This document shows positions 953-32,481 of a DNA stretch of 32,481 nt, piece by piece. The notes beneath the pieces are model-generated. The model ran no database searches. It saw nothing but the letters and a program-made list of their open reading frames with translations, and had not been told where the DNA came from. Both the position numbers and the translations under genes were made by a program. Every line of letters begins with the position of its first letter. Positions within the stretch are counted from its first letter, which is position 1. The stretch is from Candidatus Magasanikiibacteriota bacterium (GTDB lineage Bacteria > Patescibacteriota > Patescibacteriia > Magasanikbacterales > UBA922): NCBI GenBank assembly GCA_016214105.1, contig JACRPD010000025.1, positions 1 through 32,481 on the forward strand. The letters are read 5' to 3'.

Positions 953-3034
953 ATGGAAAAAAATTTGAAACAAAAAATTCAACGTCTGCGCGCGCAGATT
1001 GATGACTTGCGTTATCGCTACCATGTTTTAAATAATCCGGAAGTGACGGACGCGATGTATGAGGGGTTAATGAATGAATTAAGAAAGATTGAAGAAAAAA
1101 ATCCGGAATTGATTACACCGGATTCGCCGACGCAAAGAGTCGCGGGCAAGCCATTGGACGAATTTAAAAAAATCGCGCACCAAGTGCCGCAATGGTCTTT
1201 TAATGACGCTTTTTCAGAAGAGGATATTACCAATTGGATTGATAGAATAACACGAATACTTGAAAAACAATACGGAAGCGTGCCGAAAGATTTGGATTAT
1301 GTCTGCGAAGTGAAAATCGACGGCCTCCACATGGTTTTGACTTATGAAAACGGCTCGCTCAAAACCGCGGCCACGCGCGGGGATGGCAAGGTGGGTGAGG
1401 ATGTGACGAATAACATAAAAACGATTCAGACTGTTCCGCTTGTCATCCCCTTGGAAAAGGGGATCCAGTTGCTCGTGGCTGAGGGCGAAGTTTGGCTTGG
1501 GCGGGATATGTTGAAAAAAATTAATGTTGAAAGAAAAAAACAAGGCGAGCCATTGTTTGCTAATCCTCGCAATGCCGCCGCGGGCACGATTCGGCAGTTG
1601 GACCCGAAGATCGTGGCCGAGAGGAAGTTGAAATTGACGGCGTATGACATTTCCAAAACACAAAACACAATTAACAAAACACAAACGATTGAGACGCAGG
1701 AAAAAGAATTATTATTACTTAAAAAATTTGGTTTTCTTACTGACAGCCATTGGCAGGTGTGCAAGAACGCAGAAGAGATTTTTGAGTTTTATGAGGCACT
1801 GCAGAAAAAAAGAGAGTCGTTTGAATTCTGGATTGACGGCGTGGTAATTAAAGTCAATCAAAAAAAATATCAAGACGCGCTTGGTTTTACCGGCAAGGCG
1901 CCGCGCTGGGCGATCGCGTTCAAGTTTCCGGCCGAACAAGCGACGACAAAAATTAAAGATGTTTATGTCCAGGTCGGCCGTACCGGCGCGTTGACGCCGG
2001 TCGCGCTCATGGATCCGGTTAAATTGGCCGGCACAACCGTAACGCACGCAACATTGCATAATTTTGATGAAATAAAACGTTTAGGCGTAAAGATAGGGGA
2101 TATGGTTGTCGTGGAAAAGGCCGGAGATATTATCCCGAAAATAATACGGGTACTGGACAAAATGCGCGATGGGAGCGAGAAGAAAATTAACGAGCCAAAA
2201 AAGTGTCCGATTTGCAGTGGTCAAGTTGAGAGAAGGAGCGTGGGTGTCCCCATCTCCTTGCGAAGGAGAGGGGCGAGGGGTGAGGTGGTTCACTCGGTCG
2301 CTTTCTTTTGCGTCGATCCAAAATGTTTCGCGCAAGAATTGGAACGAATCATTCACTTTGCGTCCAAGCACGCGTTTGATATTGATGGTTTAGGCGTAAA
2401 AATTGTGGAACATTTAGTCAGCGAGGGCTTGATAAAAAATCCCGCTGATATTTTTGTTTTGACAAAAGGCGATTTGGAACCGCTGGAAAGATTCGCGGAG
2501 AAATCAGCCGAGAATTTGATTTTGGCGATAGAAAAGGCGAAAAAAGTTACTTTACCGCGGTTTATTTTCGCGTTAGGCATTCAGCATGTTGGCGAAGAAA
2601 CGGCAATTCGTCTTGCCAATCACTTCAGCTCTTTAGATAAGATTATGGACGCGAGTCCTGATGAATTGCAAAAAGTAAATGATATCGGACCCCGCGTCGC
2701 GGAATCGCTTAAAGAATGGTTTGGTAATAAAGAAAACTTAAAATTAGTGGCAGAACTATTAAAAAATGGCGTTCAAGTTACAAGTTACAAGTTACAAGTT
2801 ATAACTAATAAGTTCGCTGGTTCAACTTTTGTATTAACCGGAACGATGGCGGGCATGACGCGGGACGAGGCGGAAGACAAAATAAGAGAATTGGGCGGTA
2901 AGATTTCCAGTTCAGTCAGCAAAAACACAAGTTTTGTTGTTGTTGGAGAAAATTCAGGCAGCAAGTTTGATAAGGCGAAGGAGTTGGGGGTGCGGGTGAT
3001 AGAGGAGAAGGAGTTTTTGGAGATGATAGCTTAA
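953..3034 (+). CDS. ligA: NAD-dependent DNA ligase
   Basis: EVKIDG adenylation motif, [13 protein letters not shown], Zn finger, HhH, C-terminal BRCT; carries three short repeat-derived insertions. Confidence 0.98.
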
Positions 3035-3035
3035 C

Positions 3036-3158
3036 ATACTAATATACTAATGGCACTAATGATACTAATGTTATACTAATTTTTGTTAAGCTAGTGTTTA
3101 ACAATAACAAGCTTCAGCGCGCATTTGTATAGCATTGGTATAATTAGTATATTGGTAT
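3036..3158. repeat. Inverted array of (AT)ACTAAT units
   Basis: Five forward ACTAAT units (3036-3080) and four reverse ATTAGTAT/ATTGGTAT-like units (3123-3158). Confidence 0.75.
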
Positions 3159-3170
3159 ATTTTTATTAAA

Positions 3171-29943: not shown

Positions 29944-31077
29944 ATGAAAAAACTTATAATCACAATGGAATTTCCGCCACAGATCGGCGGCATCGCGAGC
30001 TATACGCATCAATTCGCGTCCGCGCTTAAACCGGAGGAAGTCGTTATTCTCGCGTCAAAACATAAACAAGCGAAAGAATTTGACGCAAACTGCGCGTTTA
30101 AAGTCGTCCGGCATAATTTTTATTTTCCGCCGTTCATTTGGCCTCGTTGGCTGAAATTATTTTGGCACGTGTTTTGGCTGGCGCGCAAAGAAAAAATTGA
30201 CATTATTTATTTGCATCATGTCTTACCGGTCGGTTATGTCGCTCGGTTGATTAAAAAATTTCTGCATACGCCATTTTTAATTTTTTCTCATGGCACGGAT
30301 GTTCTGTTGGCTTCGCGTTCAAACTGGAAGAAAAATAGAATGCGATCAGTGGTAAATCAGGTGGAAGCGATAATTTTCAACAGCGCCAGTTTGCGGCAAA
30401 GATTTTTACGCGTTTGGCCGGAGTTCGCGGACAAAAGCTTGGTATTGTATCCTTGCCCGGACGATGATTTTTATCAAGCGCCGGCGGGAGATGTGATTGA
30501 TAAACTAAAATCTCAATACGCTTTGGAAGGTAAAAAAGTGATTTTAACCATCGCGCGCATGGATGATGGCAAAGGCTATCCGCATTTGGTTAGGATTTTG
30601 TCAAAAGTTTTGGAAAAAGTTCCTAATTTGGTTTGGCTGGTAATTGGCGATGGGCCGAAATGCGAGTCTATTTTGAAGGAGATACAGAAAAATTTCTTGC
30701 AAAATGTCGTTCGTTATATCGGCATGGTACCGCACAAAGAATTAAAACAATTTTATTATCTCGCTGATTTATTTGTGCTTTTAACGCACCCTGATGAAGG
30801 CAGAGAAGAGGGGTTGGGTTTGGTGTTTCTTGAATCAGCCGCGGCCGGTCTGCCGGTAATCGCCGGCCGGAGCGGAGGCGTGGAAGAAGCGGTTTTAAAC
30901 GGCCAGACCGGTCTGGTGGTTGATATTTATCAGGGTGATAAAATTGTGGCGGATTCAATTATTGAGCTATTAAAAAATGAAAAATATGCCAAAAATCTCG
31001 GTATGAATGCCAGAATGAGATTAGAGGCGGATTTTAAATGGGAGAACCAGTTGAAGGTGATTGGGAGGTGGGTGTGA
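29944..31077 (+). CDS. GT4 family glycosyltransferase
   Basis: FPPQIGGI, HGTD, EGLGLVFLESAAAGLPVI..GGVEE. Confidence 0.93.
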   Translation: MKKLIITMEFPPQIGGIASYTHQFASALKPEEVVILASKHKQAKEFDANCAFKVVRHNFYFPPFIWPRWLKLFWHVFWLARKEKIDIIYLHHVLPVGYVARLIKKFLHTPFLIFSHGTDVLLASRSNWKKNRMRSVVNQVEAIIFNSASLRQRFLRVWPEFADKSLVLYPCPDDDFYQAPAGDVIDKLKSQYALEGKKVILTIARMDDGKGYPHLVRILSKVLEKVPNLVWLVIGDGPKCESILKEIQKNFLQNVVRYIGMVPHKELKQFYYLADLFVLLTHPDEGREEGLGLVFLESAAAGLPVIAGRSGGVEEAVLNGQTGLVVDIYQGDKIVADSIIELLKNEKYAKNLGMNARMRLEADFKWENQLKVIGRWV

Positions 31078-31139
31078 ATTGGGGGTAATCAATTTATGTC
31101 TAGTCCCGTAGGGACGGCAGAATTTGATTAACAAAAACT

Positions 31140-32255
31140 ATGCAAAAATGGCTGAAAAAAAATTTCAAAGTCTGGTGGCTGCAAGCGCTGTTGGCTTTTG
31201 CCACTTTTGGGTTTACCTCCGTGCTGTTCGTTTACTTCGTTAAAAAAGACGTTACGTTTTTTCAAATATTCTTGGCTGATTTTTTTTCATATTCTCTAAT
31301 CGTCGCGTATTTGCTTTTCAGAAGAACTTTATTTTCTCGCGGGACTATTTTGACTGGGTATCTGTTGATAGTCGTCGGAATGTTAATTTTACTCTTGCCT
31401 TTTCCGGCGACTGCGCTTTTGTTTCCATATACAATAATATATGGCTTGGGTGTAATAATGTTTTTCGCGCCCTATAACATTCTTTATTTTAAGAGTATCC
31501 AACGAGGCAATTTGGAACACATGACAATTTATTGGTCAATTGGAATTATTACCGGATTGGTTGCGCCGCTGATTGGAAGTTTTGTGTTGGCTAAATTTCC
31601 GTTGTGGATCTTTATTTCCTGCGCTGTGCTTATTCTATTGTCTGCTGCGTATCTCACAAGGTTTGTTGAGCGCCAAAAATATTCCTACACCACTAAAGAA
31701 GTTTTGACCCATATCCGCGGCTTACGGACGTTGTCCATCATTGACGGCTCTTTGCACAAAACAAGTTTGATAGTCGTGACAGTTTTTTCATTGCAGTATA
31801 TAACCACGGAATTAAATTTCGGTCGGTTTTTGTCCATCGCGGCTTTGGCCGGAATAATTGTCGCTTTGCCGATGGCCAGAATCTCCGACCGCTGGCAAAA
31901 ACGAATGATTTTTATCTGGCCGCTTTCAATCATGTCGGCCGGCGTGGTTTTTTCTTTTATTTTTGTAAAAAGTTTTTTAGGTTTTTTTGCTTTGGCGCTT
32001 TTACTAAAAGCCATTTTGAGTTTGTTGGAGCCAATCCGCGGAAATGTGATACTGGACAAGAAAGAAACGGGCAACGCCATTACTTGGATTTCCCGCGAAC
32101 TTTATCTTAACATTGGCCGGCTGATGATGATGGGCGTAATCGCGGTGTTTATTTATTTTGGCAATTACACGGCAATTTACAGTTTCATCGCCCTACAAAT
32201 GGTTTTGTATCCGATTATTTTGTATTTTAAAAAGACCTATGCAGTCGTTGATTAG
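31140..32255 (+). CDS. MFS-type membrane protein
   Basis: About 12 hydrophobic segments, APLIG, ARISDRWQKR. Confidence 0.75.
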   Translation: MQKWLKKNFKVWWLQALLAFATFGFTSVLFVYFVKKDVTFFQIFLADFFSYSLIVAYLLFRRTLFSRGTILTGYLLIVVGMLILLLPFPATALLFPYTIIYGLGVIMFFAPYNILYFKSIQRGNLEHMTIYWSIGIITGLVAPLIGSFVLAKFPLWIFISCAVLILLSAAYLTRFVERQKYSYTTKEVLTHIRGLRTLSIIDGSLHKTSLIVVTVFSLQYITTELNFGRFLSIAALAGIIVALPMARISDRWQKRMIFIWPLSIMSAGVVFSFIFVKSFLGFFALALLLKAILSLLEPIRGNVILDKKETGNAITWISRELYLNIGRLMMMGVIAVFIYFGNYTAIYSFIALQMVLYPIILYFKKTYAVVD

Positions 32256-32481
32256 CATTATCATTCCGGTTTTTAATCAAGCGAGAGAACTTCGTCTGGC
32301 TTTGGATTCAATCGCCAAACAAACTTACAAAAATTTAGAAGTGATCGTCGTTGATGACGGGAGTGTTAGCGGACTACGGACTACGGACTACGGACTACGG
32401 CACGATATACGAATACACTTTGTCAGACAGGAGAACAAGGGTGCGCCGGCGGCGAGGAATAGGGGATTGGAAATGGCAAAA
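32239..32481 (+). CDS. GT2 family glycosyltransferase (partial, runs off the window)
   Basis: MQSLISIIIPVFN, EVIVVDDGS, NKGAPAARNRG; (CGGACTA)x4 follows DDGS. Confidence 0.92.
   Translation, partial: MQSLISIIIPVFNQARELRLALDSIAKQTYKNLEVIVVDDGSVSGLRTTDYGLRHDIRIHFVRQENKGAPAARNRGLEMAK

Follow-up and report, generated by a model that had tools for sequence, protein, structure and literature searches.

The short tandem arrays that lie in frame within housekeeping genes of a Candidatus Magasanikiibacteriota bacterium probably belong (we put this at roughly 60%) to a population of miniature selfish repeats scattered across the genome, which are related to the arms of gene-bearing cassettes, have spread non-locally and have been filtered where they fell within genes. 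We report the analysis of one stretch of 32,481 nucleotides (contig JACRPD010000025.1, hereafter the window), of the genome from which it comes (G000, an assembly of 840 kb in 84 contigs, 91% complete) and of related genomes. The cassette design and heptamer repeats are both already known; the difference here is that arms of this type also occur alone and in frame within essential genes, such that selfish modules of about 30 nt would be read as protein within the essential genes of a tiny bacterial genome.

Every array that a first-pass annotation of the window had cited is present and lies in an open frame with Pfam domains flanking it on either side (Table 1); the domains spanning the in-gene arrays are LigA, HhH-GPD (Nth), TP_methylase (RsmI), MnmA, AlaRS and GT2. 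The two arrays of the endonuclease III-like gene fall below the Tandem Repeats Finder threshold and are visible in the sequence. The inverted pair 3036-3080/3121-3161 and the arrays at 11474-11509 and 28422-28443 were unlisted in that annotation.

Table 1. Repeat arrays of the window, with their positions and gene context.
Position	Strand	Array	Context
1654..1685	+	31-nt module cARAACAC-ARAACAC-AATTAAC-AAAACAC-A; Tandem Repeats Finder CAAAACA x4.6	ligA in frame, residues 234-245
2774..2814	+	(CAAGTTA)x4.0, 100% matches at 2774-2801, plus degenerate units	ligA in frame, HhH-BRCT linker, residues 608-621
3036..3161	.	gene-less hairpin doublet: ATACTAAT-type arm 3036-3080 + inverted copy 3121-3161	between ligA and PBP gene
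5190..5212 (cited as 5180-5210)	+	degenerate copy of ligA-type 31-nt CAAAACA module	endonuclease III-like gene, in frame; read by eye
5538..5565	+	degenerate CGTAGTC-type array (reverse complement of CGGACTA unit)	endonuclease III-like gene, in frame; read by eye
11474..11509	+	TGTTAGT-type array	spans junction of AA_kinase-family (10731-11486) and P5C reductase-family (11501-12313) genes
17169..17213	+	AACAATTT-type octamer array, period 8, x5.6	rsmI in frame, residues 98-112
20238..20274	+	AAAGTC-core array, 16-mer x2.3, 100% matches	mnmA in frame, residues 137-148
20597..20622	+	AATTATG-type array, x3.7	mnmA in frame, residues 256-264
22161..22187	+	GAATTAT x3.9 array	alaS in frame, residues 403-411
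28422..28443	+	TACGAAA-type array	between S9 gene and terminator-like hairpin
32370..32400	+	(CGGACTA)x4.4, 100% matches	GT2 glycosyltransferase gene in frame, residues 71-81

A tandem-repeat scan of the whole genome, which the annotation had proposed, finds arrays of period 7-9 far above chance, in families that recur on both strands. With Tandem Repeats Finder (at least 3 copies, score at least 36) there are 183 such arrays in G000, comprising 88 loci of period 7, 66 of period 8 and 29 of period 9, where each of three order-5 simulated genomes gave 0-1 per period; the neighbouring periods are scarce (5 loci of period 6, 6 of period 10, 8 of period 11 and 4 of period 12). Exact arrays of at least 3 copies number 23, 7 and 2 for periods 7, 8 and 9, respectively, against none in any of five order-3 Markov simulations. 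The annotation's estimate of about four copies agrees with a median of 4.0 (5th-95th percentile, 3.1-5.1), at an array length of about 30 nt. Local replication slippage combined with concerted evolution would have arrays born in place, in tolerant loops or spacers, with families convergent from base composition and stop avoidance; units being gained, lost and converted again and again would maintain the tandem structure. We regard this account as rather unlikely: periods 7 and 8 exceed periods 6, 9 and 12 even within genes, and the lengths of exact period-7 runs, instead of declining steadily, show a second peak at 28-33 nt (14 runs, with 8 of 21-27 nt).

That slippage alone is insufficient, as had been suggested from the window, is borne out by the 31-nt module of ligA. 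Its 20-nt core, the odd third unit included, has 18 copies in G000 (at most one mismatch) and 19 in the congeneric genome G002; 199 further genomes of the order have none, nor does a reversed-pattern control give any in either G000 or G002. At up to two mismatches G000 holds 23 copies, which have sharp ends. The identity of the module between the two genomes reaches 97% (one copy), against about 80% for syntenic sequence of the genome. Flanks were inspected for three of the 19 G002 copies, none of which lies at the position of a G000 copy, and at the place of one G002 copy G000 has a different 35-nt stretch, aligned without gaps. Because an imperfect 31-nt sequence at 18-23 non-homologous sites is shared with G002 while its positions differ, the arrays are not independent products of slippage; the modules have dispersed non-locally.

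The modules also turn over at orthologous sites. Thirteen sites of the window can be aligned with G002, and these hold a different array in five cases, a related unit in one, a conserved array in three and another kind of element in three, the last site being empty. The ligA site at 1654-1685 carries other heptamer arrays in the orthologues of G002, G012 and G006 and none in that of G018. In G002, two other modules occupy the mnmA site at 20238-20274, a GACATAG-type array the site at 20597-20622, a CATCAC-type run the place of 28422-28443, unrelated GC-rich hairpins that of the doublet, and (AATTTTC)x4 the GT2 site, with its length unchanged. Sister species thus hold unrelated modules at orthologous sites, in some cases of equal length, and between G000 and G001 (about 85-88% identical) modules, hairpins and cargo-bearing elements are present or absent. 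The TGTTAGT-type array is absent from the orthologous place in G002, and the module at 5190-5212 is conserved in the G002 orthologue and is therefore probably an older copy. Some of these comparisons speak for local processes. At the first LigA site and in the linker, arrays stay at one residue from genus to genus; the array at 2774 has a degenerate homologue of the same family and length in G002, and this difference in homogenisation only, perfect versus degenerate, fits local events; and at 5538-5565 the G002 array, of similar length, is built of CGAAGTC units that differ concertedly by one base. Intergenic DNA of G000 and G002 is unalignable, so that an unconstrained unit could drift to unrelated sequence with selection holding its length. 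A changing number of heptamers between strains is also described, in the sections drawn upon here, for Coxiella's intervening sequence (IVS) (PMC4990558).

The annotation had named small four-helix-bundle and GxxExxY genes flanked by arrays as candidate mobilisers, and both kinds of gene indeed have arrays from these unit families on their two sides. Inverted arms (at least 14 of 16 bases matching) surround 11 of the 12 such genes in G000 and 33 of 681 other genes (Fisher p 2e-13); the 12 genes come from Pfam searches, and NCBIfam confirmed six of the 12 family assignments. All eight four-helix-bundle genes of G000 (PF05635/TIGR02436) lie outside the window, in which Pfam finds no four-helix-bundle ORF and which holds solo arms and one gene-less doublet. 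The same design recurs at all 20 loci from nine related genomes (at least 13 of 16 bases; 17 of 20 at 14 of 16 or more) and, across many phyla, at 55 of 72 loci. Arrays outside the cassettes share sequence with cassette arms: 51 of 171 match an arm of G000 in at least 16 of 18 bases, compared with 6 of 171 shuffled-unit controls, which is a further point against slippage; the other 120 match no G000 cassette arm. In the window, the unit family of the doublet is that of the arms of a GxxExxY cassette (C55:846-1330), that of 5538-5565 belongs to the arms of a four-helix-bundle cassette at C18, and that of 20238-20274 to the arms around a truncated four-helix-bundle gene (C49:2368-2612). Array density correlates with the count of cassette genes (Spearman 0.79 in 28 genomes; 0.74 over 25, three being dropped for sharing a genus within the set). 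The three largest families, those of AAATTGTT, AATTATG and the CAAAACA module, are not represented by any cargo-bearing copy in the 91%-complete assembly, and G015, G017 and G023 have 3-7 four-helix-bundle genes, yet arrays are few in their sampled 5-25 kb.

These cassettes resemble the IVS found in the 23S rRNA of Coxiella burnetii which, in the parts of the report used here, is an element of about 430-450 nt with an S23p-family four-helix-bundle ORF, terminal inverted repeats (a stem of about 28 bp) and, inside it, three to four tandem heptamers; it has long been suspected to be selfish or mobile, by a mechanism not known (PMC4990558). Size, four-helix-bundle ORF and inverted terminal arms of tandem heptamers are shared with the G000 cassettes, as far as that account describes them, and inverted arms built of tandem units are seen in 11 of 12 cassettes and in the doublet of the window. 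Unlike the IVS, the cassettes lie between ordinary genes rather than in rRNA, have their own unit sequence in each copy and include a second cargo, GxxExxY, in the same design; their arms, moreover, occur solo and in frame within protein-coding genes. On the selfish-module reading, the full element would be a cassette that resembles the IVS and is about 450 nt long, in which two mutually inverted arms, each of about four 7-9-nt units (about 28-33 nt), frame a cargo: either a four-helix-bundle gene of small size (S23p/Avd-like, TIGR02436) or one of the GxxExxY type (PD-(D/E)XK-like, TIGR04256). Such arms would also be found as hairpin doublets that lack a gene and, singly, as solo modules about 30 nt long, whose copies would land away from their source and not adjacent to it. 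Intergenic copies could build up freely, whereas the survivors within genes would be frame-keeping, stop-free copies in tolerant segments, translated as filler. Tolerant sites would be reused repeatedly and would therefore come to hold unrelated modules at the same residue in sister species, and later slippage or conversion may homogenise or erode each array locally. We infer both that the solo modules derive from cassettes and that they are without host function.

In-gene copies are filtered by frame and stop codon. Seven of eight sense-strand ORF copies of the 31-nt module are read in one common frame, and in the alaS array a variant unit, GAATTAG, abolishes a TGA that would otherwise be in frame (the frame being worked out from the sequence). 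The suggestion that the repeats sit in variable loops holds in part: the second LigA module lies in a low-confidence linker, with pLDDT below 50 at residues 614-618 of the model, and the residues of the first form a strand end and loop; the alaS array, however, aligns without gaps to a solved AlaRS (9jc7), and the RsmI and MnmA arrays add merely 2-4 residues (3 at 17169-17213 against RsmI 5hw4; 4 at 20238-20274 and 2 at 20597-20622 against MnmA 9hlv). Gain or loss of a unit in a gene is, by simple arithmetic, a frameshift, which raises the question of contingency switches, in which such changes toggle genes by phase variation. Unit sizes that are not multiples of three and the two perfect in-gene arrays (2774-2801 and 32370-32400) would suit such switches, but the hosts are single-copy housekeeping genes, the imperfect repeats of most arrays damp slippage, and each cited array is in an open frame, the two LigA sites across 20 aligned orthologues. 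No copy-number variants of plus or minus a unit were seen in the assembled contigs of three runs, which are blind to rare variants. Phase variation is, we believe, exceedingly improbable.

We find it quite improbable that the arrays are functional cis-elements under selection, be they protein binding sites with tandem units of 7-8 bp, RNase III or terminator hairpins or insulating spacers, with the in-gene copies as by-products. Such roles would accord with the 96 of 183 arrays situated within or bordering the non-coding 10% or so of the genome, with an orientation relative to GC skew that is constant in 18 of 19 AAATTGTT arrays and 11 of 13 AATTATG arrays, with module sequences common within the genus and with the doublet at about 3030-3170, for which a strong RNA hairpin is predicted (-42.9 kcal/mol, z -5.95); heptamers of Xanthomonas and Nostoc, too, lie near ORF ends and are mostly transcribed, in the portions of the study consulted (PMC4692102). 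Against these roles stand the dozens of unit families, the copies on either strand within housekeeping genes, the modules present, absent or swapped for unrelated ones at the same place in sister species, and the failure to find a boundary motif common to the arrays. Relative to the 90% coding share the arrays are depleted in genes; in absolute numbers almost half (87 of 183, counted on crude longest-ORF gene calls) are inside ORFs.

As to how selfish modules of this kind might move, the annotation's proposal of trans-acting writing stands as regards non-local copying, seen in the 31-nt module; the analysis linked no trans-acting enzyme with the spread. Neither a fresh insertion junction nor a target duplication was observed, and several in-gene modules swap sequence with little or no change in length, which a simple insertion model fails to predict. 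Our preferred guess is a patch copy started by a nuclease and made by the GxxExxY protein that the cassettes encode or by a route of host repair. A more specific version, tentative and rather doubtful, is a length-measuring, templated process, maybe started by the GxxExxY nuclease, that duplicates some 30 nt (four units) of an existing arm onto a target of equal length, which it overwrites. If true, it would represent copy-and-replace mobility, even in essential genes, of elements ten times below any known transposon, and would account, with no need of G-quadruplexes, for the rule of four units that is nearly universal among heptamer repeats of bacteria. As regards a diversity-generating retroelement, which pairs a reverse transcriptase with Avd and a template/variable repeat pair, reverse transcriptase fragments exist; array-rich G014 gave no RVT_1 match, and the scores of the four-helix-bundle proteins stay under the Avd cut-off.

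Elhai et al. reportedly described the small dispersed repeats of Nostoc in 2008, and in that organism such repeats are associated with heptamer repeats. Our modules resemble these and the REP/REPIN sequences in being about 20-30 nt long, dispersed and often in hairpin doublets, and G000 encodes a Y1 HUH transposase, as do REP/REPIN systems with their RAYT proteins, to the extent that these are covered by the source (PMC3116915). The G000 protein stays below the NCBIfam cut-off for RAYT (28.8 bits against 80) and passes that for IS200/IS605 (91.4 against 55), and the hairpins flanking its gene are of another type. Nor does a Y1 transposase suit the part of a REPIN-like partner, its presence being without relation to array density: G000, G001, G002, G009 and G022 all have an IS200/IS605 TnpA, the last of them being array-free in the 40 kb sampled, and in array-rich G014 none was found.

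The cyanobacterial STRR sequences, a class of heptamer repeat, were reportedly described by Mazel et al. in 1990. Xanthomonas (GGGAATC) and Nostoc (GGGGA(C/T)T) heptamers show a four-unit preference which, in the material available from that study, is attributed to G-quadruplexes and needs runs of at least three guanines (PMC4692102). Most units here are A+T-rich and without such runs, and their four-unit bias must therefore have another cause. Both sets have 7-nt units genome-wide, an excess outside genes and frequent convergent (inverted) pairs, but the Xanthomonas and Nostoc repeats are, in the same portions of the report, under-represented in coding regions (PMC4692102), whereas here 87 of 183 arrays lie inside ORFs and there are many unit families, not one.

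Another close parallel lies in the Rickettsia palindromic elements, said to have been described by Ogata et al. in 2000 as selfish DNA in frame in protein-coding genes. These elements are palindromic and of about 100-150 bp. Like them, the modules are dispersed repeats tolerated and translated in housekeeping genes and absent from orthologues, and some replace sequence without net insertion; those within genes of the window, however, measure about 26-45 nt and are direct tandem arrays, not palindromes of that size. A nearer match occurs in rsmI of G002, where an in-frame hairpin element about 100 nt long, which belongs to a different repeat family, occupies the site of the octamer array.

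The genome that contains the window (G000) is represented by an assembly of 840,151 bases in 84 contigs, with 44% G+C and a completeness of 91%; the window is its contig C20, and all of the long genes in the window lie on the + strand. Their Pfam families are those of ordinary housekeeping genes (LigA, PBP, HhH-GPD glycosylase, BipA, proline-synthesis and IscS/NifU-type proteins, RsmI, MetRS, MnmA, AlaRS, ribosomal proteins, RpoA and glycosyltransferases). The tandem arrays that the first-pass annotation had reported in these genes were recovered by Tandem Repeats Finder (TRF), save for the weakest two, at 5180-5210 and 5538-5565, which are discernible by eye only, and its reading that they are carried in frame holds throughout, each of the arrays lying within an open frame that is spanned by the Pfam domain of the gene.

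A genome-wide TRF scan (loci of at least 3 copies and a score of at least 36, with overlapping rows merged) yields 88, 66 and 29 loci at periods 7, 8 and 9, respectively, against 0-1 in three order-5 simulations, while exact arrays of at least 3 copies number 23, 7 and 2 at the same periods and 0 in each of 5 order-3 Markov simulations of the genome. Since periods 6, 10, 11 and 12 give only 5, 6, 8 and 4 TRF loci, the step size is specific and is not a multiple of three. The median copy number of the 183 arrays of periods 7-9 is 4.0 and most of them are 25-36 nt long, and exact period-7 runs number 14 at 28-33 nt as compared with 8 at 21-27 nt; the preferred size of an array is about 30 nt, irrespective of period. 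By crude longest-ORF calls, which make 90% of the genome coding, 87 arrays lie inside ORFs, 65 are intergenic and 31 straddle the end of an ORF; among array-rich relatives, between 2 of 8 and 7 of 12 arrays fall within long ORFs. The longest array of the genome (C23:27914-28104) consists of about 27 ATAAATG/ATAGATG units followed by an inverted copy and lies between two membrane-protein genes. Across the flanks of all arrays (366 in number), no 5-mer is enriched more than 3.6-fold, so that they display no shared boundary motif at this level, and a search of the genome found no HIP1-like over-represented octamer; GGCGAG flanks the arrays of the AATTATG family.

Members of one array family have imperfections in common, and the clearest case is the array at 1654-1685 in ligA, a 31-nt module that reads cARAACAC-ARAACAC-AATTAAC-AAAACAC-A and has a deviant third unit. 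The suggestion that such families recur beyond the reach of local slippage is upheld by the 20-nt core of this module, which, allowing one mismatch at most, occurs 18 times in G000 (9 copies on each strand), 19 times in the congeneric species G002 and not at all in a sample of 199 other genomes of the order; a reversed control pattern gives 0 matches in G000 and G002 and a single match in one other genome. With up to 2 mismatches allowed, the core is found in 23 copies in G000, with sharp ends, and 7 of the 8 copies on the sense strand of ORFs use the same frame. The best copy in G002 is 97% identical, as against about 80% for syntenic DNA of the two species, yet none of the three G002 copies whose flanks were inspected (of 19) stands at the position of a G000 copy, and one of them falls within a gene whose G000 orthologue has, without a gap, a different 35-nt stretch at this place. 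The array at 5190-5212 in the Nth-like gene is a degenerate copy of the module, and probably an older one, since it is kept in G002. Taken together, these sequence comparisons favour reading the array families as copies rather than as products of convergent slippage, and for one specific module of about 30 nt they provide unusually direct evidence of copying between unrelated places.

Alignment with orthologues in G002, possible for the 13 window arrays with alignable flanks, shows that the sites turn over: five hold a different array, one a related unit, three a conserved or degenerate array and three another element, and one is empty (see table). At site 32370, (CGGACTA)4 in G000 is matched by (AATTTTC)4 in G002 at identical length. 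An alignment of LigA from 20 genomes places other heptamer arrays in the loop of the first ligA module in G002, G012 and G006, and none in G018, and in G012 the HhH-BRCT linker also carries heptamers, of other units. Between G000 and G001 (about 85-88% identical), solo modules, gene-less hairpin doublets and two cargo-bearing elements differ in presence or absence; this comparison is based on another G001 contig, as G001, being 83% complete, gave no DNA match to the second half of the window. As a separate observation, the LigA orthologues of five compared genomes (G006, G019, G022, G025 and G028) contain an in-frame insertion of about 30-40 residues near LigA residue 165-173, which shows up as a pair of matched segments, separated by about 100 nt, in one open frame and which, in G006, is of low-complexity-looking sequence.

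Features and sites referred to in the text, with the state of the window's array sites in the congeneric species G002
Feature	Position	Remark
tRNA-Glu(CTC) and tRNA-Met(CAT)	window 4949-5105	between PBP gene and Nth-like gene
Sites with a different array in G002	window 1654, 20238, 20597, 28422, 32370	
Site with a unit one base different throughout in G002	window 5538	
Sites conserved or degenerate in G002	window 2774, 5180, 13129	
Sites with GC-rich hairpins in G002	window 3036, 3121	
Site with a hairpin element in G002	window 17169	about 100 nt, in frame in rsmI
Site empty in G002	window 11474	
IS200/IS605-type Y1 transposase gene, single, full-length	C49:8147-8596	syntenic place in G001
Reverse-transcriptase fragments in G000	C58:11326-11829, C49:18234-18662	YADD motif

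The check proposed in the first-pass annotation, namely whether small four-helix-bundle or GxxExxY genes are flanked by array units, gave a clear answer. Small ORFs lie between inverted pairs of arrays spaced by 180-460 nt, and G000 has 8 + 4 = 12 such cassette genes, all of which match PF05635 or PF13366 and 6 of which are confirmed as four-helix-bundle (TIGR02436) or GxxExxY (TIGR04256) genes. Inverted tandem-unit arms, matching in at least 14 of 16 bases, surround 11 of the 12, compared with 33 of 681 other genes (Fisher p 2e-13). To our knowledge, the function of these four-helix-bundle 'IVS protein' and GxxExxY genes is poorly understood. The unit family differs from one cassette to the next, and several of the families recur in the window: GGACTAC in the GT2 and Nth genes, AAAGTC in MnmA and ATACTAAT in the doublet at 3036-3161. 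Outside the cassettes, 51 of 171 arrays match a G000 arm in at least 16 of 18 bases, a level of matching reached by 6 of 171 shuffled-unit controls; the three largest array families, AAATTGTT, AATTATG and CAAAACA, have no cargo-bearing copy in the 91%-complete G000 assembly.

The cassette design is present at all 20 loci sampled from nine related genomes. A wider search, made with a narrow four-helix-bundle alignment (the broad one being too diverse), found 585 stretches encoding relatives of the query in many phyla; at 72 loci from many phyla the arms match in at least 14 of 16 bases in 55 cases, and TRF detects arrays on both flanks of 36 and on one flank of 19. Array densities are 2.2 per 10 kb in G000, 2.1 in G001, 2.1 in G002, 2.0 in G014, 1.3 in G006 and 1.1 in G009, and 0-0.5 in 22 other genomes (14-40 kb sampled from each). 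Density, taken from samples of 5-60 kb, is correlated with how many genes of the two cassette families a genome has (Spearman 0.79, n=28 genomes; 0.74, n=25, when three genomes sharing a genus with another are dropped), though these figures overstate the significance because relatives are not independent.

Two candidate mobilisers were considered and rejected. The Y1 transposase of G000 scores above the NCBIfam cut-off for IS200/IS605 and below that for RAYT, and its gene has its own GTCCC-GTA-GGGAC and CCAGGGGC hairpins on both sides. By distribution it is neither necessary nor sufficient: no Y1 transposase was found in array-rich G014, and one is present in G022, a genome whose 40-kb sample contained no arrays. 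Reverse transcriptase is likewise discounted, as G014 has no RVT_1 match; for the fragments in G000 the best-matching NCBIfam models, none of which is matched above its cut-off, are those for group II introns and Drt3a.

Within the proteins, the claim that the modules occupy variable loops stands in part. The second LigA module falls in a linker with pLDDT <50 and the first at the end of a strand and in the next loop (AlphaFold model, 18 sequences, mean pLDDT 79.8), whereas the AlaRS module aligns to a solved structure without a gap. Compared with solved structures, MnmA is longer by 4 and 2 residues at its modules and RsmI by 3; with so small a gain, or none, the modules often replace sequence and do not simply add to it. 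Equal-length replacements are not predicted by a plain insertion model. In alaS, the variant unit GAATTAG abolishes a TGA that a perfect array would put in frame. A reduced genome (840-kb assembly) is shown to tolerate such DNA inside ligA, alaS, mnmA and rsmI, which bears on the origin of new protein loops and on the load of selfish DNA that is possible in a minimal genome. The Rickettsia RPEs, the classic in-frame selfish repeats, are palindromic and far larger than the modules described here.

Related repeats are known elsewhere. The 23S IVS of Coxiella, 428-444 nt long, contains an ORF for S23p, a four-helix-bundle protein, as well as three to four tandem heptamers, the number of which differs between strains, and has a terminal stem of 28 bp (PMC4990558). 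The heptamers of Xanthomonas and Nostoc, for which there is no agreed origin, show a preference for four units, convergent pairs and under-representation in genes, and their four-unit bias has been attributed to G-quadruplexes (PMC4692102). Most units in G000 are A+T-rich, so this explanation does not carry over, and the abundance of such units speaks against G-quadruplexes as the cause of the four-unit rule. G000 joins three things: four-unit heptamer repeats, four-helix-bundle 'IVS protein' genes and GxxExxY genes. The literature searched, which leaves most subscription journals outside, holds no account of heptamer or tandem modules in frame in CPR/Patescibacteria genomes, nor of GxxExxY/TIGR02436 cassettes linked with repeats; new here are the direct evidence that one specific imperfect module has been copied, the quantified match of arrays to cassette arms and the cross-genome correlation.

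Logan contigs from three runs of one study list no +/-7 variants at in-gene arrays; they break or mis-join there because the arrays are repeated, and weigh neither way. A contig of the run that holds 93% of the window's sampled words has 121 extra letters between 14739 and 14740, in the spacer that precedes the Aminotran_5 gene; either a polymorphism of a small element or a difference in assembly may account for them.

The window also contains hairpin elements of other kinds. Positions 1-110 hold an element of about 100 nt, from another repeat family, with the ends GTCATTGCGAG...CTCGCAATGAC; some of its copies are present in only one of G000 and G001, and G002 has more than 20 short dispersed matches at 80-97% identity, as well as a copy in frame in rsmI. 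A small, Cys-rich ORF with about 52 residues, discerned by eye on the + strand at 6038-6197, overlaps a minus-strand ORF listed at 6027-6383 and precedes a terminator-like hairpin. GC-rich hairpins of the CCCTCTCC-loop-GGAGAGGG type form a cluster at 5800-5960, which lies at the 3' end of the Nth-like gene and past it, and hairpins of this type also bracket two DUF559 endonuclease-like genes (C23:29220-29591 and C33:2333-2707).
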